A DNA stretch of 14,703 nucleotides from Armatimonadota bacterium (GCA_043814095.1 JBDRKI010000086.1:1-14703); one strand, 5' to 3'; numbered from the stretch's first letter, positions 2-14,701 are shown. Notes: a model not told the origin generated them from the sequence alone. A program made the numbers and translations.

Positions 2-3000
2 AAGACGGGTAATGTAAGGTTGAATTCCCATAAGACAGAAGCAATATTCACAGAATTAGGCGAGCTGGGTATTGTACCTAAAGGAGGCAGTTTCGCTCTT
101 GAAGTAAGGGATACTAAAGAAGGGCTCAAATTCTACATTAACAATACCCCTCTTACCAGAGAACAGACCGATACTGTCTTAAAATTAATAACAATGCACG
201 GTTTAAAGCCTAAGAATATAGATATAGCCGTAAGAAGCGGATTAGCCCTTCTTACTTCAGACGGTAAAGTAGTAAAAGTAATGCACCTGAAAGCTCCTAC
301 AGATACCGCTATTCCGGAATCTGTAAGAACGCATACTAAAACCAAAGCAAAAGCAAACCCTGATAATGTTATTGACTTTAATAAATACAAAGAAGCAAAG
401 AAGAAGAAAACTGAGAAGAAAAAGAAAGATAAAAGCGGCAAGCCGCCTTCCGCACCTACTGCTACAGGCACTGATAAACCGGCTCCGCATAAAGTGCCTG
501 AAAGAAAAATGCCCGCTGCCGCTAAAGAAGCGCTTGCCGCGGCTAAGAAGTGCGCAAAATCTACTCTTGATACTTTTAAAAAAGGTTTGGGTAATATTAT
601 ACCTCAACCCCAAGCTGCGGCTGAAGGGCCGGCAGGTGTAAGCCCGCAGGGTATGAGAGTCCCTGTTGTTCCTCCTATTATGCAGAATAATGCAAGCCAC
701 CCGGGAGGCATAAACCCAAGGCATACACAGACTACAGGCTTGGGAGAAATTGATACTAAATATATGCCTTCATATATAGCAACCGAACCGGTAACAGCCA
801 AGAGTGTATTAAATAAAACACCTACTATCAATAATCTTAATGAGCTAAAAGCAGAAGTAGATAAAACTTACAGCAGATATAAACTTCTTGTAAGCCATGC
901 GGGTGAAGATTATTTCAATGTTGATTCTTTTAAAGGATATCTGCAGGGCTGTAACGCGCTTGATAGATTAATAACCGATATTCTATGGCAGGCAGAGAAA
1001 ATCCCGGGCAGTGAAAAACTTATAGACCGGCTTGTTACTATCAGAGCAAATATGATTATTCTCTGCTATACGCCCCTTTTAAGAAAAGCCGACAACTTAT
1101 CAATGTTAGACATGCTAGATTTTAAAAACGCCTTTAAAAGAAATACTGCCAGCACAACACAAGAAGAGGTATATCTGGCTCTGAATGATCCTGAAAAATT
1201 AGAGATAGATCTGTTTATGCCCAGGCTTGAAAGAGCTTCAAACCTTTTAGATCAATTTAAAAACTTAAACGATCTTAGTTTTGAAGAATTAAAAGAATAT
1301 ATTGAAGCGTGTGAAGTAGCCTGGAATACTGCCGACAAACTTCTTAATCTGAAGAATCTAAAGCCTGCGGATATAGAATTGCTTAAAGCAGAAGCCGATA
1401 AAGCCGTTGAAAATTATAAAGAAGCACTTAAGATAACACTTGAACATGACGGGTTAAACTTAGGCGAAAAATTCTTAATACTCGCCGAGTTTATAAAGAA
1501 TACGCATGAAGAAGTCTGGAACCTTAAAGAACTGCAAAATGCAGCCATTCAGATTCTTGATGCTCTAGTAAAGAAACGCCAAGATGAAAGTAGATCCATT
1601 GAATCTTATACCAGATTAAAGATAAGGGTTAAAGATATATTTAACTCCGACACAAATGAAGCGATATCAGTAGCAATTATAAATACGCTAAGAAATTATC
1701 TTACCAAAAAACTAACAGAGAAAAGTGATAGAAGAACTTACCTGCAAATAGGGCCCTTCTTACAAGAATTCTCTGAAACAGAAAAACGAGGAAACAATAT
1801 TCCAAAGTCTCCTTCTAAAGATAATATTCCAAAACCGCCCTCTGCGGGAAATGCTTCTAAAAATACAAATTTGTGGAAAGCAACAAACGAATTCGCTAAA
1901 AAGGTAGCAGACGGCTTAAAGAATCTGCTGGGAACAGAAGCTGTCACTCCCGAAGGCATAAAAATGCCTGCAGGTATACCTGAAAAACCCGTATCAATGC
2001 GGATGGACGGCAGAGCACTCGGGGCTAATCCTGTAGTAGCTGTATTCAGAAAAGACTTATTACATGTATATTCCTTAAGCTCCAGGGAAAACTTCGGATA
2101 TTCTGATGCATTAGAATACGTAACCGGCTGCAGCCGGATTTATAAAGAATTAAGTACGGCTATAGATAATGCGGGAACAGATACTTCTACAAGGTCAACC
2201 TTAGCAGACCTTAAAAAAGAACTGGTGAATACTATATATCCCGACCTTATAAACTGCTTTGAAAAATTACCTAACCACGACCAGTCCCCGTTCCTGCTTG
2301 AGATTATTAATAACTGCCCTGATGAAATATTTAAAAAACACCTGAATCTTTTAATAACAAAAACTTCTACGCTGGGTGCTGTAGAAAGAGAAAATTTTGA
2401 CATCAAAAACGCGATAAAATACCTCAGGGTATGCAATACCATATATAAGAAAGCTTCCGCTTTTATAGAAGCAGAACAGGATTCTCCCAGTAGAACAAGC
2501 TTAAAACTTGCCCTTGCAGATTTAGATAAAGTCTATACCGATGTTATAAACTGTATTGTAAAATTAGGTAAGAACCAGCAGGCTAGATTTTTATTAAAAT
2601 TTTTATCAGACTGCCCTGATGAAATTTTCAAAAAACAGTTAAACACCCTTACCTTCCTTGCAAGAATAACTATAACCGATAGAATAAGCTCTTTAAATTT
2701 TTATAAAGAAAAGACAGTTTTAAGCGAAGCAGACTTCCAGCTTTATCTTGAAGAATGCAACCGCAGATTTGATGAGCTTACACGCTTAATAGAAATATTT
2801 GAAGGAAAATCAGAAGACAAAAATTACTTACTTGATAGAATAAGATTAATCTATAATGCAATTGATGCCGAATTTGTATTAAAAAATGAACAGGAAAAAA
2901 TAGTTAAAGAATATTACACGGATTTACTGAAAAAGGCGGATGCACTTGCTGATTCACAACAAAAAACAAAACTTATTAATCTTATACATAATTCCCTGCC

Positions 3001-6000
3001 TTCTAATGTAAAAAAACACTATGAAATAACCACTCATATATCACTGACACGGACCGGGAGCTTAACACCAGAGCAGACAGATATACTGAATATAATAAGG
3101 CATGATATGAGATCTCCTTTAGCTTCTCTGGATGCAGCCCTGCATTTATTAATAAGCGGTTATCCTAAATATGAGTCTGTTTTAGGATACATCCGCAGTG
3201 AATTCGACAAAATCTCAGAAAATTTTGCTAATATTTTCAGCCCGTATAATCCCGAGTTTAAAGATTCTAATTTTGAAGAAGTTCTGGACAAGAAATTTGA
3301 AGAGCTTACAAAGCATGTAACTGCTTTAGAAAGCGTGGTTAATGCAATTAACTTCAGCCAGTGGGGCAAACTTTCAGAAAAGGAAATAGATCTTATAAAT
3401 ACTGTAAAAAGAACATTACAGGATACAAAAGATACTTTTGAAAAGAGAACAGACTATCTTAACTTAACTACCGAATACATTCAGTCAAATATAAGTAAGG
3501 TCAACCTCAAAAGCCTGGTAGAAAAAATCTGGGAAGAATTCTGCTGGGAAAAGCCGAACGGTAAACCCGTTAATTTAAAAACAAACATATATGAAACCCT
3601 TCAAATACCCGGAAACCAGCTCTCCTTCATAGTCGTATTAAGAAACATATTCCAGGATATCATGGATGAATTTAAACAGAATAAGTCCGGCTACTATGAA
3701 ATAATTGTCGGCGCTCATAAAGACGGCACTTCCGGCAAATTCATATTAACCGTAGAAGACAACGGACCCGGCATACCCGAAAACAGAAGAGAGAGTGTAT
3801 TTGAAGGCGACTCCAGTAAAGGTGAAGGAAGAGGGTTCGGTCTTAAGAGAGTAAAGCGGCTCGTACATGACAACGGCGGTCGCATCTGGGCGGCAGAAAG
3901 AACATCCGAAGACGGGGAATCGGTACCCGGCAACAAATTTATAATGGTATTTGATAAGGGTAAAGCTCCGGACAGAACTCCCGACCCCGGCAGAAGAAAC
4001 CTCAACGGTATAAACGGGCAGGATCCCGGAATAGTACGTGATCCCCTATTTGACGGCGCAAGAACCCCGGTGCCGGCAGACACCTTAAATGAAACTAAAG
4101 CGCCTGCCGCAATTGATAAAGAAGCAGGCACGGAAGCACTCCATTTTATAAGACATGACTTTAACTCTCCGATTAACTCAATACGCGCCTTCCTTGATAT
4201 GGCTCAACTCATAAATTCCGGACTGCGTGATAATCCTGATTTTAAAACTGCTCTGGAAAAAGTTGATTATTTGGAAAAAGAATTTGATAATTACTTCCCG
4301 CACCCCGGCAGTATTAACAATTTTTCATCCTTCTTAGACTCGCTGGAGGGAAAATTTAGAAAATTAAGCTCTTCCATTAATGAGATTGACAGACTGTTAA
4401 ATACATTTGAAATTTATAGATCTTTAACCCCTGAAAAAATCAAAATCCTGCTAAATGACTATTATCATCCGGAAAAGGGCAGAAAATTTACTCCGGAAGA
4501 AGAGTTAGAAGCCGCTTTCGCCGCGGTTAAAAGCAATATAAATAGCGCAAAAAGAAATTTTGAAGCGGAATTAACTGATATTATTGATTTAACGCCCGCA
4601 AACATAATGAAAAACTCCAAACAGTTCAACCTTACCGAACTTGTGCAAAACACAGTCAACCGCACAGGCGGCAGAAGGATAAAATTTGAGACCCAAAACA
4701 ACTATCCTGTTGTTGCGAACGAAGAAAAAATCGGTTTTGTTGTTGCGGAATTAATTAATAACGCTTTGAGGATTTTTAATCAGGAAGGAAAAGGAGACAG
4801 AGTAGAAATCCTCATAGAAACCGGAAAAGAAGCAAATACAATACAGATTTTTGTATCAGACAACGGCCCGGGCGTCCCTGATAATATGAAGCGGCGGATC
4901 TTCGATGAAGGAGAAACCACCACCCAAAAATCAGGCGGCACTGGCGGCGGTTTATATGTAGCAAATAAAATCATAGCGGCGCATAAAGGAACAATTGAAG
5001 CTACGGACACCCCCGGCGGAGGCACTACTTTTGTAATTGAGCTTCCTTGTGGAGGAGAAATACCTCAACCCGAGATGAGCCTGACGGAAAGCTGGATAGA
5101 TAAGGCAACCCGCTACTGCGAGAACGGTCATATAACAGAAGGCATTAAAGATGCTTTTGTTATGCTGTTACAGGAATACTACGGAAAACAGGACCTAAGC
5201 CATGCCCAGCTTAAAGCATACCTCCATTTCTGCGATATTATAAATGAAAACCTAAGCAAGCTGGATTCCATTACAAGAGCAGAGTTTAAAACATTCCTGT
5301 CCGGTGAAGAAACTGGACATATAAATCCTTACCTTGATATTATACATAATATTACCAACCCCAACCCCAGGTTTGAAGTGCGCCAGAGAGTGAATTTCCT
5401 TATTGAATTTATTGAAACCTGTCCTGAAGAAATATTTGAAGCGCATCATGCAAAGCTTGCATACCTTGTAAACAATCTGGTTACAAACGCAGTTAAAGGA
5501 GGTCTTGATTATTTCAAAGATAATACTTCAGACCTTCAGGGACTGCTTTATTATTTCTCGGAATGCCAGGAAAAATTCCATGAAGTATCAAGATTAATAA
5601 CTCTATCAGAAAAAAGACACCAGATTGATCCCGGGAACAGGCTTCCCGAGCTGCGTAAAGATCTAGTAGATATATATTATAAGGATACTCTTGATAAGGC
5701 TGAGAGTCTTCCCGAAAAAGACAGAAGAGAATTCCTTGAACAGGCCATGGGCAGACTGCCCGATATGGCAAAAGAAAATAAAGATATCGCTAAGCGCCTG
5801 ACAGGCCATAGAGATGTTATAACTGCCACAAGCCCTGAAGGAAGAATACTGGCAGAAATAAGGCATAATTACAGGGCTCCTCTTAATTCATTAAAAGGGC
5901 GCTTAAGACATATAATCGAGAGCACACAATCTGCAGATCTTCAGGAAAAACTTGAGCCCCTGCTTAATGCGGCAGACAATCTCTATAATGATTTTGACCA

Positions 6001-9000
6001 TACATTCAGAGCCGGCAACCCCTTATTCACAACTTCAGGATTTAAAGATACCCTTGACCGGCAGTGCGGGAGAATGCTGGGATTACTCAATACCATTGAA
6101 ATAGGATTAAAGGAAATAAATTTCTCGGTTATACCCGCAGAGAATAAAGATCTGCGCTCAAATGTAGATGAATTACTAAAGACCCCTGCTAGTATAAGAA
6201 GAGAGTTTGATAAAAGGAATAAACTGCTTGATCTAAACCCCGGTTTTGTAGAAAGAAACAGGGTTAAAGTAGGTCTTAGCACTATAGTTGAGAAAGCTGC
6301 AACTGACTTTACACATATATATATAAACAATAAACGGGTTAAATTAATCATAGACATACCCGAAGGCCTTAATGTTTATGCACATCCGTTCTCACTTGTA
6401 TCTGTATTCAGGAATCTTCTGGAAAACTCTAAAAATGCTCTTGAGACAGTTAAACAAGATGAGTATGTAATATCCATTAAAGCCCGGGAAGATGCAAATA
6501 CCGGCAATATTATGGTTTCTTCGTCCGATAACGGACCCGGCGTACACGCAAAAAGAAAAAAGGCAATATTCACGGGAGACAGCACAACAAAAGGCGGCAC
6601 CGGATTCGGGCTACCCAAAATAATGGAGCTTGTTACCGCAAACGGCGGTACAATCAAAGAAAACGGAAAGTTCGGGAAAGGCGCTGAATTTAATATTGAA
6701 CTGCTTTCCAAATCCCCTACAGAAGCTTTTGAATCTAAAAGAGTATCTGTAACCAAAGCCCTTAAAGAACTTGCTGTCATAACACATGATTATAAGCCGA
6801 GAGTTAATGCCCTGCTTATGGCAGTCCGTAACATTAATACTGATTATCCGGAACTCCTTGCCAAAAACCCTGAATTAAATAATATATTTACGGAACTTCT
6901 TGAAACAGCCGAAAAATTAAACCAGGCTGTAAACAGACTCCATGAAAAATACAGCAAGAAGTTTAAAGCTGCTTGTGATTATGATTCCAGAACAGTATCT
7001 CTTGCTGAATTAACTGCCTTTAAAACAGAACTGAATGCCTTTAAAAAAGACGCAAGAAAAATAAAAGAGCTTAATGCTGAATTTAACAGAGTTCTATCTT
7101 TTGAAATAATAGAGCAAGAGCCTACTGGCCGGCTGCAGACTGATCTTATTCTTATGCAGGAAGCCGTCAAAGAATTTACAGAGACAAATCTCTTTAACTT
7201 AACGCCTGAATATATAAGCTCAAATAAAACCAGGATTAACCTTCAGAAATTCTTTGAAGCATTAATGTTCAGAACAGCCAAAGGGCGGAAAATATCGCGC
7301 CAAACAAAAGACGGTATAATCACCCTGCAGGCAGAACTTGATCCCGTAAGAGGAAACAGGCCATCTACACTTACCGTAAGCCTGCCACAGAACTCCTTCT
7401 TATACGGTAATAACCACTCCTTATTAGTTATATTCGATAACCTTATAGCAAACTCTCAGAATATGATAAGTCTTGCAGACAGAGCCGCCTATAATATTAA
7501 TATAGCTATAACACCTGACCGCAAAACCAATAAAACCATATTTAACTACTCGGATAACGGATTAGGCATTGAAGCAGATAAAAAACAGAAGGTGTTTAAC
7601 GGATATAGCTCAAGAGAAGACGGCACGGGATCAGGCCTCCAGAAAGTAGCAGAACAGACAGAAGCACACGGCGGCAAGATATATGAAAACGGAGACTACG
7701 GCGAAGGTGCAAAATTTGTACTGACAATCCCGACAATGCCTCCTGAAGCATATCCTTTCGGCAAGGCTAAGGCTGAAAACACAAAGGCAAAGCCCGGAAG
7801 AGCTCCTTTTGAGAAAACAGAACTTCAGAAGGGTACTGTCGGTTCCGACCTGACACAGGCAAGAGCAAAAGCAAATAAACCCAGAGAATACAGATCCCAT
7901 ACCGGCATGCCTGTAAAAAGCGCAGACGGCACAATAACTACGCCTCATAGCAGTAAAAACATACACATATTAAGAAAACTTAAGGAAAAGGTAATATTAG
8001 CAATCCTTAATAAGAAATCAGCTGTTGAACAGACTCTTAAAGAACACAAAATAAAGGTAAAAGCAAATGAATTCTACGATGCAGAAACAAAAGAATACCG
8101 TTTATACCATTTGGTTGATCATATAATAAACAGCGGGTACAACGGGCCTGAGAATGCAATGCTATTCTGTGTTAAATTAATAGGGCTCTACAGGAAGAAA
8201 CAGGGTGAGCTTTTCACTAGATCAGAAATAGCCTTGCTGGAAGCAGGTGCTGTAAGGGCCGCGGTACACGATGTGCTCCAGGAAAAACAGCCTAACCTGC
8301 ATGATACTTATGGCAGTAATTCTATACTTGCCAAATACATTCTGGAATTAAAAGAAGATTTCCTTATGGATTTCTTCTGGAATAACCAAAAATTCGGAGT
8401 AAACAAAGATGAACTACTAGATGCAATATACTATAGATTACGCTGGTTTAGCCGCCAGACCGCTGAAGATTTCAAGCTGGCATTCGAAAATAAAAGACCT
8501 GAACTTACACTTGAACAGAAAAAAGCACAGCTTCTTGTATGTAACGGATTCTTTACAGAAGTTACAAAAGTAGGGAGTAATGCTACCGACGATCAAAAGC
8601 TTAAAGGGAACTTAAGATTCGTAAAAAGTACCTTGTTGCACAATTATTATGATTTTATCCTGCTTGATTTTGAAGGAATTCGAGATTCAGATAAAAGTAG
8701 AGCGCTTGTTGAATACTTCCATAATAATATACCTGCCGAAGTAAAAAGACACTACGAGATACAGACTGACCATCCGAATTATGAAAAGCTGCAGGAGATA
8801 AGGCATGGGCTTAGGAGTCATATTGCAAGTCTTAAAATGAACTTAACTTCTTTAGCAAGGCGCACAAAAGACAGTCCCGAAATTAAAGAAAAAGCACTCT
8901 CTATAGTTGATAAAGCCGACGCCTTAGAAGCATATGAAACCGGTTTCAGTGATGATAACTACACTGGAGAAAACTTAAATGAACCTCAATTCAGTAATTT

Positions 9001-12000
9001 AATAAAAGCTCAACTAAGATTACTGACTACGCATACTCTTGAAATAAATGCTTTAATGCTGGAGGCAATGCCTGAAAAAATATTTAATCTGCCTGCCCAA
9101 ATAATAGAAAAAATACTGGAATACGCAGACGAAAAAACTGCAGAGAGAATAAAAAGCAGACTGCCTGAGAATATTACTGAATACCTCAATACGGAAAAAG
9201 ATATGCCTTTCAAGGCCGTTAAATCTACTTTTATTTTATTTAAAGAAACCGTTCTTGATAATAACACCAATGTGGGATTCAGTATATTAGGAAACAAGGA
9301 CTGCAGAAAGGTATTATCTCCTCAAGACTTCTCCTTTATAATCGAAAACATTATCCAGAACTCCATAAGCGCGTTTAACAGGCAGATTGCAGAAGATCCT
9401 GAGAGATACAAAGATAAACAGTATGAAGTTACCGTACAGTTTGCAGGCGCAAAAGAAGGTGAAGATGGTCCTGTAAATATAACATTAAGCGATAACGGCC
9501 CCGGCATACCTCCTGCTCTGCCTTCTGCAGATGGCAATATACCGAAAGTTAATAAAGAAACCATCTGGTATGCAGGCGTAACAGAAGGCGGGAAAGGATA
9601 CGGCCTTAGCCTTGTAAAGGAAAAAGTGGAAAAAGCAGGCGGCAGAATCTATGAAAACGGCAAATACGGAGAAGGCGTGCAGTTCTGTATAGAACTCCCC
9701 GGCAAAGAATCTAAACCGGCTGAGGTTAAACCCGAAGTTAAAATAACAGAGAAAGCCCCCGGAGATGGATTAATAAAAGGAACCGAGATAAATCTACAGC
9801 AGAGCGGCAGAAGTAAGGTACCGGGCAGCCCTGCGGAAACAAAAATAGGGCTTACAGAGACGCCAATTTCCTCATCGGAATTCGGCGGCAAAGCACCCGG
9901 CGCGGCCGGTATGTCTACAAGAAAGCCCGGCATGCATAACGGGGTAAATATAGGGATACCCATTTCCAAGCTTAACGTATTTCACGGGATCTTAAGAAAA
10001 ATAACCAAAGGATTGGAAAAACCAACCGTCAGAGTAGATAATTTTGAAATATTTTTCTACACACTTGCTAAAGAGAATGCAGAAGTAGCGGTAGAGATCT
10101 TAGAAAGATTGCTGGAAATAAATAATGAACAGGGATGGAATTTAAATAACCTTATTGATATATATAACCAAATAGCGCGTCTTGCGTCCGTAAGATTCCC
10201 TGAAGGAAGAGAAGCGCTTAAATCCTTATTTAACTGCGGTAATATAGAAAGAATAAAAGAAAATATTGCTAAAGTTTCTAGAGAAGAAGAATATAACCCA
10301 ATACTTAAAAAAGATAAAATATTAACCGCTAAAAACGGTAGAACCCCGGATATGGAAGTTGAACAAAGCCCCTTTGTAAATTCCATACTTAGTTCGCCCA
10401 TTTTGAGCGGCTTAGACAAAGATACCATGGGGCAATTAGATGTCTTTGCCCGCAGGACATCGAATCTGGCAAAACATCTTGCGACAAAACACAACCACCC
10501 GGATCCTAAGCTCCTTACTTTCAATATAGAAAAAGGATTAAATATAAATAAAAAGTTTAAAAAAGTTTTAAATATTGAAGAATTAGATGCTCTGGAAAAG
10601 ACAGCCACGGTATTTAACAGAAAATTCTATAAAGCTAAAACAAGTATGATCTTAACTAAATTAGAGCTGGACAGCATGCCTGTAAAGGATGCGCATAATA
10701 TGATTGTGACCTTCCTTGTCGCGGCATTTAATTATACTTTTTCTTCCCATTACAAAGTGGAAAACTTCATTGCTGAACTGCGCGAGCTCCAGGAAATATA
10801 CTTAGAAAACACAAAACAGTTCCAGAAGACCCTTACCCCTGAAGAAAATAAGATAAACAGTATAATCCTGGGAGTTACCCGCCAAGACCAGCGCCTGGCA
10901 ATAATAAAAGAGATAAAAAAGCTTCCTTCTAAATTAATAAATGATCTTATTGATAATAACTGCATAATTGTATTTGCGGAAGATGACACACTCTCAGAAC
11001 CTGTTTTAAATATGTATCTGGACAGAGAATCCGGACATCCCGAAAGTAAAAAATTAGTAATACTGGGACGGGATTCCAGAATGGATCTTACCTCGGCAAT
11101 TTTCAGGGAAACATCCTACCGCATACTGCATTCAAAAGGATTAGGATTCTTAAAAGAAGAGATTGAAAATATACAGACTGTTGCGGAAAAAGAATTCGGC
11201 CTTAAAGGAGAAGATTTTGAAGAATTCTTTGCCTCATCTTTCGGAGCTTTTTTAACAAATACTTATAAGACATATTTTTATACGGAAGTACTGTTGAAGG
11301 ATCTGTTTAAATGTCCGCTTATTAAAGGCAGGGGTATTAAAAAAGACTCTGCCAATAAACCCCTTGAAGAAATAATCAGGCTCTTAACTGAAATATATGA
11401 AAAATCAGGCGGAAAAGACATACCTTACGGAGAACAGCTTAATATAAAAGAAGTTCACACGGTTAAGCAGGAGCCGGCAAAAGACCACGGTAAAAGATGG
11501 ATGGGCGGAAAACCGGATAAAGAAATAACCCCTAATCCGGAATTTGAACGCCCGGGCCTTATGCCGGAAACACCTCCGGATGCCGAAATAAGCGAATACA
11601 ACAAGAAGCTTCTGCTGGCTTTATGGGAAACGGAAGGTAATAGAGTAGAGGCGGCAAAAACTTTAAATGCAGCCCCAAAAACCATCGGAACGCATGCCAA
11701 TAATTTCATAGAAAGCGCAACGGCCAGACAGCTGGAAGCATGCGCGCTTCAATTAAGCAAAGAATCCGGAAAACATATTACGGCAACCCAGCTTCTTAAG
11801 TACTGCGGTTATCAAAAATTCAACCGCTTGCTAACAACGCTCGGAAAAAATCATGAATCAATTAATCCGGAGTTTATCCAGACCACTCTCGGAATTCAAG
11901 GATTAAGTCCGAGCAAATGCAGGCTTTACATATTAAAATTAAAAGACACAGGGGCTGACTTTGAGAAAGAATTCAATCTTTCAGAACAGCAGATTAACTC

Positions 12001-14701
12001 AATCCTTGTTATTTTATCTAAATGTACCAAAGTAGACAGGGGCACTTTTTATATTCCGAAAACAACAGAAATTGAAAACGAAGCAAAGACAGAAGGAACA
12101 TCCAAAGCAGAAACTGCAAAAAAAATTAAAGAAATAAAAGACACTGAATACCATAATACTCTGCAAGAGATAGGAAAAAATTACGAAAATTTATATGCGG
12201 CTTTAAGGTCAACTTTAAGTCAAAGACCGGAAACTATAATCGGACTTAGAAATTACATCCGAGAATTAAAACAAAAAGGCATTGATTTTAAAGCTCAATA
12301 CAATTTAACTGCCAAAGAGGTCGAAGCAATATTACTCATACTAAAAAGTGCCCATCTAAGCAAACTAAAAGCACAGTATATGGCCGGCAAACAAAAATTC
12401 GCACCGAATCAACCCGGACTTACTTTCCCGCAGGAAGCACTGCCGGCAGAGCGAGCTACCGGTCCCCTGGCAGAAAAAGTTCAAGAGCCTAAATTAGAGT
12501 CTGCTATTGATACGATAATTACTATGGCAAAACAGCCGCCGGCAGAAACAAAAACAGCAAAACCCTCAGGTGCAGCTGGTGGTGAAAAATACACCATAGA
12601 ACAAAAAGCAGCAGCAATGATACAGATACATAGACAAACCGGCAGATACAGTTCAACAGAAGCTGCAAAAATTTTGAAAAAAGAAAGCAAAGAAATAATA
12701 AATGAGAGCATTATCAGACAACCACTTAACAAATTTATAGAAGAAGCTTCTTTTGAAAAATTACAAGAATGTGCTATAAAAGTTTCTGAAATACTTGGAG
12801 AAACTGTAACGGACGGCGAACTTCTGCTTGCCTGTACCACTAAACATTTTAGAGCCGCATTAACTGACTTAGGAAACCATCTTGCTAAATTTGATAATAG
12901 AATAGAAGCATCGGACATACAAGACATCCTAAAAAAACACAACATCAGAGAAGAAGCTTTTAATGAGTATTTAATAAAATTAAGTAAAAGCAATGCAAAT
13001 CTATCAAAAACGCATAAACTATCCCATGAACAGATAGATAATTTGGCTAAATTACTGACCCCCGATACAGATACTGTGCTCAGACTTCTTATTGAAGATC
13101 CCTATAAATTACAGCCGGAGTTTACAGCAGTACTTAGAGGAGTCTGTGGAGACAGAGCTGTAACCGGAGCCATAATTAAGTTAAGAAACCTAATAAAAAC
13201 ACATAGAGAAGTAGTTGAAAAACTCCTTGCAGATCCACTGGGGGTTGATAAAACTCAAAAACTGCTAAATACACTTGATCCTAAACAAATAGGAATAACA
13301 AAAGCTCCTGCAGAAGCCTCGCCTGAGCAAGTAGTTACATCAACTGTATCTACGGGTGATATCATACACGATAATCTGTCTATAACCGAAAGAGATATAG
13401 AAACTTTATATCACCATTGGATGAACCCGCATATAACTCAGGTTCCAAATTTAACAAATGTAAAAAATCGTTGTAGTCAATTAGCCAAAAACAAGCAACG
13501 GGAACTAATATACAGATTAAACGCACTGGCTAAAAAACGCGGAAAAAACAAAAAGATTGATATGCCTGCTCTTACATGGCTTCTTAGTCTTAATCGAAAT
13601 ATAACCTTAAAAGAAAAAGCCCCTCCTATTGAAGGATCTACATGGAGAAGCTACCCCAAGTCCGCACAGCCGGCTTCTGTGCCTTCGCCAAAACCAGAAC
13701 CCGTATCTGCACCGGAGCAGATTGAAAAAGCGGCATCCGCAAAAGAAAGTATCATAGAAGAAAAATATACTATTGAACAAAAAATATCTGCTATGATTAA
13801 AGCACACAGGCAAACGAAAATTTACAGTCCCGTCAGGGCGGCTCAGATATTAGAAGAAGAACATGGAACTCAAATAAAATCAAATTCTGTCGGCCAGCAT
13901 CTTAACAAATTCATAGAAAAACCAACTACTACAATTGAAATTTTAAATGCTTTAGCAAAAAAACTCGGTGTAAAAACCGAAGAGGTAATACTTGCCTGCT
14001 GTAAACAGCAGTTTAGAGTTTCATTAATTGAATTAGGCAAAGAATTAGCGGATAAAAATATCGGCCTCCCGGAAATAAGGAGCATCTTAAATTCGCATTC
14101 TATTAGAAAACTCCCGGATGAAGTTTTCTATAGATATATCTCAAAACTAAGAGACTGCGAAGCAGATCTTTCAAAAGATTACAATCTCAACCGTGAACAG
14201 ATAACCTATTTAGCCGGTTTATTCGAAAAAGGTAATACCCCGGATAAACTTACAACTGGCGGGACAAGCGCACCCTTGCAGGCTTCCAAAGCAAAAGCCA
14301 ATAAGACAAGAAAAAGAGGGGTATTCCCTGAACCAACACGCCCTGAAAAATTGAGTCATGAAAAAGCGGAATTCAGCCAGTGGGATGACGGCCTTACCGC
14401 TAAAGAACATCTGGTAATATACCTTCTGGAAAACAATAAAAACACTTTTCTTAAAAACCCCAAAAAGTATGTCGCGGATCTTATACACACCTACTGCCAG
14501 AAAAAAATCAAAGCTATTGATAAACTCATACAGCTTATCAAGAATAAAGAGCTTGTTATTCAGGGATTCAAAACCAGAGACATTAATATATTATTAACCG
14601 CGCTGGGCCAAGTTAGAGATGATATATCTAAAAAATCAGGGACAGCGACAGTAAAACAAGACACAGAACCCCAAAAAATAACGGAACCAACGCAAGCAGT
14701 A
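2..14701 (+). CDS. Giant multidomain protein, partial at both ends (>=4900 aa): five histidine-kinase-like modules, helical repeats, degenerate zincin-like domain, HTH-containing repeats
   Basis: Manual translation of frame +2 runs from KTGNVRLNSHKTEAIF... to ...KITEPTQAV with no stop. All recognisable motifs (five DNGxG boxes, five H-boxes, HTH) lie in this one frame, and composition is Lys/Glu/Leu/Ile-rich as for a soluble protein. Start and stop codons lie outside the window. Confidence 0.96.
900..1565 (+). repeat. Helical protein repeat family A, copies 1-2 (divergent)
   Basis: YLQGC (938) ... CYTPLLRKADNL, and YIEAC (1298) ... FLILAEFIKNTHEEVW. Spacing is 120 aa, and motif order matches the clearer copies at 2080-3028. 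Boundaries approximate. Confidence 0.6.
1796..1843 (+). repeat. Short imperfect tandem duplication (27-nt period) in a linker
   Basis: aatattccaaagtctccttct (NIPKSPS) at 1796 and aatattccaaaaccgccctct (NIPKPPS) at 1823. Confidence 0.7.
2080..3028 (+). repeat. Helical protein repeat family A, copies 3-5
   Basis: RENF..YVTGC (2117)..IYPDLINCFEKL..FLLEIINNCPDEIFKKHLN; RENF..YLRVC (2420)..VYTDVINCIVKL..FLLKFLSDCPDEIFKKQLN; YLEEC (2744)..YYTDLLKKADAL. Periods are 101 and 108 aa. The DNA actgccctgatgaaat occurs identically at 2313 and 2610. Confidence 0.85.
3083..3952 (+). other. Histidine kinase module 1 (HisKA-like + HATPase_c) within the giant CDS
   Basis: H-box IIRHDMRSPLASL (His codon 3101); N-box VLRNIFQD (3644; second Asn replaced by Asp); G1 VEDNGPGIP (Asp 3758); F/G2 VFEGDSSKGEGRGFGL; then NGGRIW...GNKFIMVF. 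Confidence 0.9.
4136..5047 (+). other. Histidine kinase module 2 (HisKA-like + HATPase_c)
   Basis: H-box FIRHDFNSPINSI (His 4154); N-box VAELINNALR (Glu 4748); G1 VSDNGPGVP (Asp 4859); RIFDEGETTTQKSGGTGGGL; C-terminus AHKGTIEATDTPGGGTTFVIELP, the most canonical of the five. Confidence 0.93.
5170..5800 (+). repeat. Helical protein repeat family A, copies 6-7
   Basis: YLHFC (5219)..PYLDII..FLIEFIETCPEEIF (Cys 5420); YFSEC (5552)..YYKDTLDKAESL. Period 111 aa. Boundaries approximate. Confidence 0.75.
5846..6706 (+). other. Histidine kinase module 3 (HisKA-like + HATPase_c)
   Basis: H-box EIRHNYRAPLNSL (His 5864); N-box VFRNLLENSKNA (6413); G1 SDNGPGV (Asp 6527); IFTGDSTTKGGTGFGL; NGGTIKENGKFGKGAEFNIEL. 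Confidence 0.9.
6767..7732 (+). other. Histidine kinase module 4 (HisKA-like + HATPase_c)
   Basis: H-box VITHDYKPRVNAL (His 6785); N-box VIFDNLIANSQN (7439); G1 SDNGLGIE (Asp 7553); VFNGYSSREDGTGSGL; AHGGKIYENGDYGEGAKFVLTIP. Confidence 0.88.
8480..8761 (+). repeat. Helical protein repeat family A, copy 8 (divergent)
   Basis: QLLVC (Cys 8540)..YYDFILL..HNNIPAEVKRHYEI (8720-8761), matching HNSLPSNVKKHYEI (2987-3028) at the end of copy 5. Confidence 0.65.
8786..9700 (+). other. Histidine kinase module 5 (divergent H-box + HATPase_c)
   Basis: H-box EIRHGLRSHIASL (His 8804); N-box IIENIIQNSISA (9347); G1 LSDNGPGIP (Asp 9491); IWYAGVTEGGKGYGL; AGGRIYENGKYGEGVQFCIELP. Confidence 0.87.
10880..11260 (+). 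other. Degenerate zincin (ATLF / Pro-Pro endopeptidase-like) metallopeptidase-fold domain, probably inactive
   Basis: Ordered motifs IKKLPSKLINDLIDNNCIIVF ... KKLVIL ... AIFRETSYRI (11105-11119, at the expected HExxH position) ... EEFFASSFGAFL (11219-11254, resembling the EFFAESF helix). Pattern match by eye only. Confidence 0.5.
11594..14224 (+). repeat. Protein repeat family B (~140-160 aa): three full copies (11594-12016, 12584-13057, 13760-14224) plus a C-terminal half copy (12146-12343)
   Basis: EKYTIEQKAAAMIQIHRQT..EAAKIL..LNKFIE..LLLAC vs EKYTIEQKISAMIKAHRQT..RAAQIL..LNKFIE..VILAC vs EAAKTL..ANNFIE..LLKYC. Shared tails: YILKLKDTGADFEKEFNLSEQQI / YIRELKQKGIDFKAQYNLTAKEV / YLIKLSKSNANLSKTHKLSHEQI / YISKLRDCEADLSKDYNLNREQI. 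Confidence 0.85.
11609..11686 (+). other. Fis-type (HTH_8-like) helix-turn-helix
   Basis: LLLALWETEGNRVEAAKTLNAAPKTI fits the Fis/NtrC C-terminal pattern ALxxxxGNxxxAAxxLGxxxxTL, with the turn Gly replaced by Asn. Confidence 0.7.

Follow-up and report, generated by a model that had tools for sequence, protein, structure and literature searches.

Five transmitter-type kinase cores in an internal segment of a giant modular protein from an Armatimonadota bacterium

The stretch of DNA analysed here (hereafter the window) is a complete contig of 14,703 b, C86, of the Armatimonadota genome bin G000 (2.50 Mb in 129 contigs, 98.97% complete, 1.38% contamination), and is spanned by one reading frame that carries five transmitter-type histidine-kinase cores (HK1 to HK5), each composed of a His-bearing helical domain and a catalytic and ATP-binding (CA) domain. 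The chance of the 4,900 stop-free codons of this frame is, from base composition, about 1e-149, and window and genome have the same GC content of 39%. The final 141 b of the window are the initial 141 b of contig C106 (L001), an overlap that is unique within the assembly, and the joined frame, open at both ends, stays free of stops for at least 8,565 codons, with C106 adding at least 3,665 residues. In alignment with a paralogue on contig C32 (C32p), residue 1 of the window falls at residue 408, and therefore at least about 400 N-terminal residues are missing from the visible gene. At least 127 b at the head of the window also form the head of contig C63, which is an assembly fork arising from paralogous genes or repeats. 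The window genuinely encodes an interior portion of a soluble, modular giant protein, one of a small family of paralogous giants in this genome.

It is clear that an array of five transmitter-type cores is present within this one chain. A preliminary description of the DNA had placed ten catalytic codons along the frame, and all ten positions are exact: the histidines of the H-boxes are encoded by CAT codons at 3101, 4154, 5864, 6785, and 8804, and the aspartates of the G1 boxes (DNGPG or DNGLG) by codons at 3758, 4859, 6527, 7553, and 9491. It had also proposed to judge the array by a Pfam search giving five HATPase_c matches and no REC, and this is what was obtained when the protein was scanned as 32 overlapping 300-aa stretches (E<=0.1). 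The five HATPase_c matches are all above the cut-off of 26.4 bits (Table 1), and a separate six-frame search gave five at the same locations. For HisKA, the score of the whole protein is 30.8 bits, above the cut-off of 26.9 bits. The H-boxes of HK1 to HK5 read IRHDMRSPL, IRHDFNSPI, IRHNYRAPL, ITHDYKPRV, and IRHGLRSHI. When aligned, the five modules have pairwise identities of 24-30% and 18 invariant columns, which include the H-box His, D-N-G-x-G, and G-x-G-x-G-L (G2), while the F-box position is also kept. The invariance of His, G1, and G2 at such a low identity argues for selection on catalysis. The motif sets had been called complete, which is correct for His, G1, and G2 but not for the N-box of HK1 or the H-boxes of HK3 and HK5, and the 4,900 aa given as the size of the polypeptide are only part of what the gene encodes, which is at least 8,565 aa long and closed at neither end.

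The same description had recognised no sensor, receiver, or membrane anchor, and by Pfam and hydropathy this holds for the visible chain. REC, PAS, GAF, HAMP, and Hpt gave no match in the Pfam scan of the window protein, REC and Hpt gave none in the C106 part (24 windows, E<=0.01), and neither C86 nor C106 carries any of the 26 REC matches or the single Hpt match of the genome. The maximum Kyte-Doolittle mean over 19 residues is 1.16, below the level of a membrane helix, and therefore the 8,565 aa contain no transmembrane segment. An input domain or transmembrane sensor (PAS, GAF, Cache, or HAMP) is thus not seen in the visible chain, where the part preceding the kinases is a generic rod, nor does the visible chain have the REC or Hpt between or after the transmitters that defines hybrids of alternating transmitters and receivers (TRTR).

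The H-box His and the G1 Asp are unusually far apart, at 219, 235, 221, 256, and 229 residues in HK1 to HK5. By comparison, 147 ordinary kinases retrieved by database search yield 240 H-box/G1 pairs with a median of 146 residues (5-95% range 140-163), and only 1 of the 240 pairs reaches 200 or more. The extra 70-110 residues follow the H-box helix and precede the helix running into the CA domain, and therefore four helices are predicted in each His domain and not two. An AlphaFold2 model of rod 2 with HK3 (503 aa, 14-row alignment) with a mean predicted local distance difference test (pLDDT) of 82.9 has four helices before the CA domain (206-235, 239-262, 275-299, and 310-331) versus the usual two. 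The HK3 model aligns with HK853 (Z 20.7, 212 residues) and with ZraS (Z 20.2, 220 residues), leaving unaligned some 70-80 model residues where ZraS and HK853 align across the insertion region, and with solved CA domains the fold Z is 17-20. Foldseek gave a probability of 1.00 for HK853, ZraS, DivL, WalK, CpxA, and EnvZ chimeras, and the top matches are all HisKA kinases; by fold the five cores are kinases of the HisKA type. From the model, we infer that the inserted helices may pack on the H-box hairpin, which would make each core a self-contained unit and not half of a dimer. When HK3 and HK4 were predicted as a complex of separate chains, the score was 0.00 each time (two runs, mark 0.32), which speaks neither for nor against a pairing of adjacent cores.

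Self-comparison gives the layout of the cores as rod-HK1-HK2, rod-HK3-HK4, and rod-HK5, in which the rods are helical regions of repeats of about 100 aa ahead of HK1, HK3, and HK5, while HK2 and HK4 follow their predecessors directly. The repeats are seen within rod 1 (aa 695-784 versus 796-883, 44% identity) and between rods, with aa 807-988 matching 1740-1909. Modelled alone (254 aa), rod 2 is all-helical, with a pLDDT of 77.2 and a predicted template modelling score (pTM) of 0.71, and it is most similar to designed repeat proteins and MUN/exocyst rods, at Z 9.6-10.4, under the bar of about 13 for a fold match between helical proteins. We read this rod as a putative scaffold or protein-contact element with no recognisable sensor fold, and the helical domains ahead of HK1, HK3, and HK5 all as generic rods.

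Table 1. Features of the window, with nucleotide positions counted from its first letter.
Feature	Position	Strand	Evidence
Open reading frame, open at both contig ends, 4,900 aa	2..14701	+	frame +2, stop-free
Region conserved with the paralogous giants, then Lys/Pro-rich linker	2..1099	+	sequence identity to C32p and C63
Helical rod 1, aa 695-1015, C-P-D/E-E-I-F motif repeats, before HK1	2084..3046	+	self-similarity, alignment
HK1 His-bearing helical domain, aa 1020-1200, His1034, with insertion	3059..3601	+	HisKA 23.0 bits, alignment
HK1 ATP-binding CA domain, aa 1208-1318, G1 DNGPG, G2 GRGFGL	3623..3955	+	HATPase_c 52.7 bits
HK2 His-bearing helical domain, aa 1372-1570, His1385	4115..4711	+	HisKA 18.5 bits, alignment
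HK2 CA domain, aa 1574-1683, top score of the five	4721..5050	+	HATPase_c 80.7 bits
Helical rod 2, aa 1692-1940, before HK3	5075..5821	+	all-helical model
HK3 His-bearing helical domain, aa 1945-2125, His1955, four predicted helices	5834..6376	+	alignment, model
HK3 CA domain, aa 2131-2234	6392..6703	+	HATPase_c 45.1 bits; module Z 20.7 to HK853
HK4 His-bearing helical domain, aa 2250-2468, His2262, longest insertion	6749..7405	+	alignment; no HisKA match
HK4 CA domain, aa 2473-2578, G1 DNGLG	7418..7735	+	HATPase_c 43.2 bits
Helical rod 3, aa 2740-2925, before HK5	8219..8776	+	self-similarity of aa 2847-2951 to 919-1050, alignment
HK5 His-bearing helical domain, aa 2926-3105, His2935	8777..9316	+	alignment; no HisKA match
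HK5 CA domain, aa 3110-3234, longer ATP lid	9329..9703	+	HATPase_c 45.2 bits
Three diverged repeat modules, aa 3883-4015, 4195-4356, and 4587-4751	11648..14251	+	31-45% mutual identity

The repeat modules that follow the cores (aa 3883-4751) gave no match to Pfam and no sequence match in the PDB. A helix-turn-helix of the Fis type was considered at the start of these repeats and rejected, having no Pfam match and, as best profile match in the PDB, an unrelated protein at E 0.33.

The continuation of the gene on C106 contains further diverged repeats and three low-molecular-weight protein tyrosine phosphatase (LMW-PTP) domains (LMWPc, PF01451), which score 28.7, 23.5, and 32.5 bits against a cut-off of 23.2. 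Their C-x5-R-S loops are intact and read CSKNEIRS, CELHQVRS, and CEQNKLRS at aa 6040, 7196, and 7566 of the joined frame (about aa 1186, 2342, and 2712 of the frame of C106 itself). HATPase_c, HisKA, and LMWPc are the only enzyme families found by Pfam in the joined gene; a weak HTH_1 match is seen in C106 only (18.7 bits, cut-off 26.6). Between modules of C106 a linker motif, H-S-K-M-P-x-x-R-P-x-x-P-P-x-A-K-L/M-H, preceded by G-G-I-G or similar, recurs at aa 6572, 7002, and 7726 of the joined frame, and could be a docking or a cleavage site. All three matches of the strict motif are in C106, with none in the window or in the paralogues.

Further giant frames paralogous to the five-core gene are found in the genome, namely L003 (C32:36500-56437, minus strand), L002 (C63), L016 and L017 (C90 and C30), L018 (C61), L019 (C78), and L020 (C17). 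These frames break the assembly, and modules and the N-terminal head are shared between them. Residues 1-366 of the window are 67% identical to aa 408-746 of C32p, and residues 1-171 are 87% identical to C63. C32p (5,533 aa, open at the contig end) has three HATPase_c domains, one LMWPc domain, and HEAT repeats, so that the genome holds eight giant-borne cores, five in the window and three in C32p. C63 comprises two frames, the second with two LMWPc domains, while C90 and C30 together hold two M16 peptidase units (two M16 and two M16_C stretches), one LMWPc domain (in C30), and a sub-threshold ATLF-like match. HExxH modules, which are absent from the five-core gene, are carried by C30, C32p, C78, and C90. 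No REC was found in the giant frames of C32p, C63, and C90 with C30. With respect to the assembly, the first 100 b of C78 are repeated at, or close to, the ends of six further contigs (C29, C53, C83, C89, C108, and C129), in what looks like a dispersed repeat or a mobile element.

The sole module-level relative found outside the genome is P0004 (1,320 aa, with a Met start), which shares rod and kinase with the window at 26-28% identity over 469-544 aa. The insertion also appears to extend beyond the five cores, given that the spacing from His to G1 is 204 residues in P0004 and 246 in one core of C32p. The front part of P0004 matches the N-termini of the C90 frame (35% over 183 aa) and of C32p (32% over 318 aa), and thus the giant family combines a common head with a variable cargo.

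To evaluate the rarity of the array, aa 1030-2229 were searched exhaustively with HMMER against 1.84 billion representatives. Among 289,699 matches at E<=1e-3, only two reach E<=1e-30, which are the protein of the window itself and P0003, an ordinary multi-core hybrid with four HATPase_c, four HisKA, and two REC domains, GAF, and PAS. REC is present in 11 of the 12 matches that were scanned, the exception being P0004, and among the matches listed only the genome's own proteins have more than four matched stretches. Of 40 relatives, one from the same order and the others from the same phylum, 14 match at E<=1e-8, all in frames of 166-1,167 aa and through the CA part only (query position 308 onward), and a query made of rod and dimerization and histidine phosphotransfer (DHp) domain matched none of 400 sampled genomes of the phylum at E<=1e-5. 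Homologue searches based on shared 5-mers, with aa 1020-3240 against proteins of 2,695-8,575 aa and with a profile at lengths of 2,311-5,000 aa, returned only the window's own protein, and aa 1692-2085 searched in the same way against shorter proteins scored none of 7,999 candidates; since this method missed P0004, these blanks are weak. A search for related loci in genome and in metagenome contigs gave one generic kinase match each, on the same 94,556-b contig, and a protein-cluster search with rod 1 and HK1 gave generic kinase clusters only. A public, unrelated giant of 6,804 aa (P0149) has at least two CA-like stretches of the histidine-kinase type, 33-37% identical to the CA domains of the window, and therefore kinase cores in giant chains recur outside this family.

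The ordinary two-component set of the genome consists of 26 REC matches, one Hpt of the CheA type, and 21 HisKA matches that pass the cut-off and lie in frames of 315-796 aa. From these counts, the receivers of the genome are possible acceptors for the giant-borne cores, with none obviously spare. Nine small contigs of one groundwater metatranscriptome fall on the window, and for eight of these the identity is at least 99%, which hints at expression and at a groundwater habitat; the parts of the window between them carry no weight, and the RNA library may hold DNA and, therefore, transcription is a hint only. Three differences between these contigs and the window, at a depth below 5, are 826 T>C (synonymous), 9179 G>A (E3060K), and 9244 A>C (K3081N), and these may be errors or strain variants. 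On a separate matter, adjacent pairs of Photo_RC genes (pufL/M-like) occur in three of seven sampled genomes of the phylum's dominant family f12 (G011, G017, and G038), and none was found in G000. Two further marker families were absent from all 41 genomes searched: Fib_succ_major, for which the control in Bacteroides did give a match, and FlaA, for which the controls gave none either.

The reading that we prefer is that the window encodes part of a giant, modular protein of phospho-signalling whose five HisKA-type cores are probably active and possibly monomeric. The anatomy on which it is built is known with high confidence, while for the mechanism, where we infer catalytic activity, phosphotransfer, monomeric working, partners, and cellular location, the chances are about even. 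Each core would be a self-contained, ATP-dependent His autokinase, whose four helices may make up a bundle within one chain that replaces the usual dimer. Any switching of the cores would act through protein contacts made by the rods and not through a ligand sensor, and the phosphate would be handed to receiver-domain proteins encoded elsewhere. HK3 and HK5, which have no acidic residue next to the His, may therefore be weak kinases or act as phosphotransfer or phosphatase stations. The three downstream LMW-PTP domains would make the whole chain a combined platform for phosphorylation and dephosphorylation.

Several observations weigh against this reading. The pTM of the rod 2 and HK3 model is only 0.57, and the putative four-helix bundle is read from secondary structure and spacing. 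The single H-boxes score 23.0 (HK1), 18.5 (HK2), and 13.9 bits for HisKA, all below the cut-off, and HK4 and HK5 gave no HisKA match at E<=0.1. An acidic residue after the H-box His is needed for autophosphorylation, and it is missing from HK3 (H-N) and HK5 (H-G); in addition, the N-box of HK1 (NIFQD) has an Asp in place of the second, Mg-binding Asn that is present in the other four cores. For this reason, some of the cores may be inactive. Furthermore, the 21 HisKA and 26 REC matches of the genome are balanced, which leaves the eight giant-borne cores without an evident dedicated partner. Finally, both ends of the gene are missing and, therefore, a sensor, a receiver, a signal peptide, or an anchor could sit in the unassembled parts.

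Alternatively, the giants may be multi-effectors that are exported or injected into a prey or host cell, where sensor-less cores would phosphorylate, dephosphorylate, or sequester foreign response regulators, LMW-PTP domains would erase Tyr/Arg phosphorylation, and the proteases of the sister genes would cut targets. We consider this unlikely, although it accounts for a number of observations: the shared head with variable enzyme cargo in P0004, C90, and C32p, the mixture in that cargo of kinases, phosphatases, M16 peptidases, HExxH modules, and the weak ATLF-like match, the cores without sensors, and the balance already existing between the genome's own kinases and receivers. Giants of Omnitrophota have, moreover, been proposed to act on other cells, according to the available text of a preprint (10.1101/2023.11.21.568195). 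Nonetheless, neither a signal-peptide-like nor a membrane segment was found in the paralogues or at the N-termini of P0004 and C90, as in the 8,565 aa of the joined frame, and neither the sheath of a type VI secretion system (VipB) nor a C39 exporter (Peptidase_C39) was found in the 98.97%-complete genome, although the giants may be exported nonetheless. The C32 copy has no secretion genes beside it, its neighbours being housekeeping genes (a radical-SAM enzyme, asparagine synthase, and glycosyltransferases) and a HEPN/nucleotidyltransferase pair. PADLOC gave no match for either half of the gene, no toxin family matched over the cut-off, and a predatory or epibiotic lifestyle of the organism would have to be assumed. 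The HEPN and nucleotidyltransferase pair, which resembles a toxin-antitoxin pair, lies just downstream of the giant paralogue on C32 (L024, 18339-19749) together with a DUF6036 nucleotidyltransferase-like gene.

The deviations in the motifs could also mean that the protein is a structural giant, a non-catalytic scaffold whose degenerate cores bind nucleotides or partners, or act as phosphate sinks or phosphotransfer stations. In addition to the changes in HK1, HK3, and HK5, the usual Pro position of the H-box is not occupied in HK4, and every single H-box is below the HisKA cut-off. A second transmitter that receives phosphate, rather than autophosphorylating, is known from the Red and TodS systems, as far as the census cited below describes them (PMC3018481). 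However, His, G1, G2, and the F-box position are kept in the five cores, in the paralogue, and in P0004 at 24-30% identity, which is hard to explain without nucleotide-dependent chemistry and makes a purely structural role distinctly unlikely.

It is also conceivable that the chain is a polyprotein, cut at its Pro/Gly/Lys-rich linkers, perhaps by the sister M16 peptidases, so that small kinases and phosphatases are freed. Low-complexity linkers do occur between the modules, the conserved linker motif occurs three times in the C106 part, and the C90 giant frame provides two M16 and two M16_C stretches. Against this, there is no evidence of cleavage, the strict motif is confined to C106, and HK1 is joined to HK2, and HK3 to HK4, by short linkers only, so we regard such processing as improbable. 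An artefact of assembly or binning, in which pieces of several kinase genes or of several organisms would have been joined into one chimeric array, could be suspected from the fragmented bin of 129 contigs and from the head shared with C63 (a fork at a paralogous repeat), but is hardly credible given the stop-free 14.7-kb frame, the common GC content, modules that at 24-30% identity are too diverged to be collapsed repeats, the C32 paralogue standing on a 56-kb contig among ordinary genes, and the agreement of at least 99% with RNA-library contigs in six separate places.

Histidine kinases are taken to be sensor-coupled homodimers with one core per chain. The array is therefore a natural test of whether a HisKA core can work as a monomer and of what a kinase detached from its input does, and, with a module of about 300 aa, it is a tractable sub-problem within the poorly understood giant multi-enzyme proteins of uncultured bacteria. 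If the cores are active, the co-linear LMW-PTP domains raise the prospect of a signalling platform combining His chemistry and Cys-phosphatases, for which we know of no precedent. A bolder combination of these ideas, which we treat as a long shot, is that the insertion makes each core a monomeric kinase with an intrachain bundle, which would let kinases be concatenated as cargo of a delivered multi-effector that hijacks or jams the two-component and Tyr/Arg-phosphate signalling of another cell; if the cores were indeed effector cargo, this would be the first case of histidine kinases as effectors.

The preliminary description had presented the array as an unusual architecture and as a candidate for an undescribed system. 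It is unusual, in that it lies outside the maximum of two transmitters of the classical census of two-component proteins from 2010, which, in its accessible text, has no protein with more than two transmitters and finds receivers in 96.2% of the two-transmitter proteins (PMC3018481). Public chains with three or four cores exist, and all of those that were scanned carry REC. To call it an undescribed system is too strong, because HATPase_c in giant multi-enzyme proteins has already been reported in two preprints. According to the available parts of these, HATPase_c is among the top-20 domains of the Omnitrophota giant proteins (10.1101/2023.11.21.568195), and PF02518 is present, within a 'signal-transduction' module, in 136 of 779 Pfam-positive proteins of at least 10 kaa, in which diverged intrachain repeats are 'the rule' (10.64898/2026.06.07.730766). 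A survey of proteins above 5,000 aa does not mention 'histidine kinase' in its available text (PMC11573180). No description of a chain with at least five transmitter cores and no receiver was found in the literature, which includes preprints whose supplementary domain tables may list such chains. The giant-protein phenomenon is thus already known, while an array of five cores lacking REC, an insertion in the DHp, and a linkage to LMW-PTP domains are not described in the available text of the literature found.

Among known systems, the giants of Omnitrophota ('Archaeovorins', 'multi-enzyme metabolic clusters') resemble the gene in having a long, contig-broken reading frame and diverged repeats of one Pfam domain; HATPase_c is frequent in them, and HEAT repeats are present in the paralogue C32p. 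The class is described by frames of at least 10 kaa, or at least 30 kaa in West-Roberts et al., tiled by many enzyme domains; here at least 8,565 aa are visible, with open ends. An N-terminal membrane anchor and extracellular HEAT-rich regions are further marks of the class; here the N-terminus is unassembled, and HEAT was found in C32p only. The visible chain has no transmembrane segment and no glycosyltransferase or sugar-metabolism modules, and sequence relatives are lacking. The preprints, in their available parts, contain no analysis of H-box or DHp and describe no REC-less kinase array.

The multi-transmitter hybrids (TRTR proteins, TodS, P0003, P0006, and P0013) also have more than one core per polypeptide, but in these the cores alternate with REC and are accompanied by PAS or GAF, in contrast to the five cores without receiver or sensor described here. 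MARTX-type toxins offer an analogy only, being giant chains with several unrelated enzyme modules behind a conserved head; their RTX repeats, cysteine protease processing domain, and nearby type I secretion genes were not found by Pfam in the visible parts. The mitochondrial protein kinases PDK and BCKDK are alike in having an intrachain four-helix region before the GHKL domain, and BCKDK aligns with the HK3 model over 248 of 302 residues (Z 15.6) with a root-mean-square deviation of 9.0 A. These enzymes phosphorylate Ser on their substrate and have no H-box His, and the invariance of this His in the array argues against membership. A further likeness is to the HisKA cores of Thermotoga HK853, ZraS, WalK/YycG, and CpxA, from which the array differs by the two-helix insertion of 70-110 aa, the five copies, the lack of sensor, HAMP, and transmembrane segment, and the H-boxes below the cut-off, and with which it shares the H-box His on the first helix, the CA domain with N, G1, F, and G2 boxes, and the fold.

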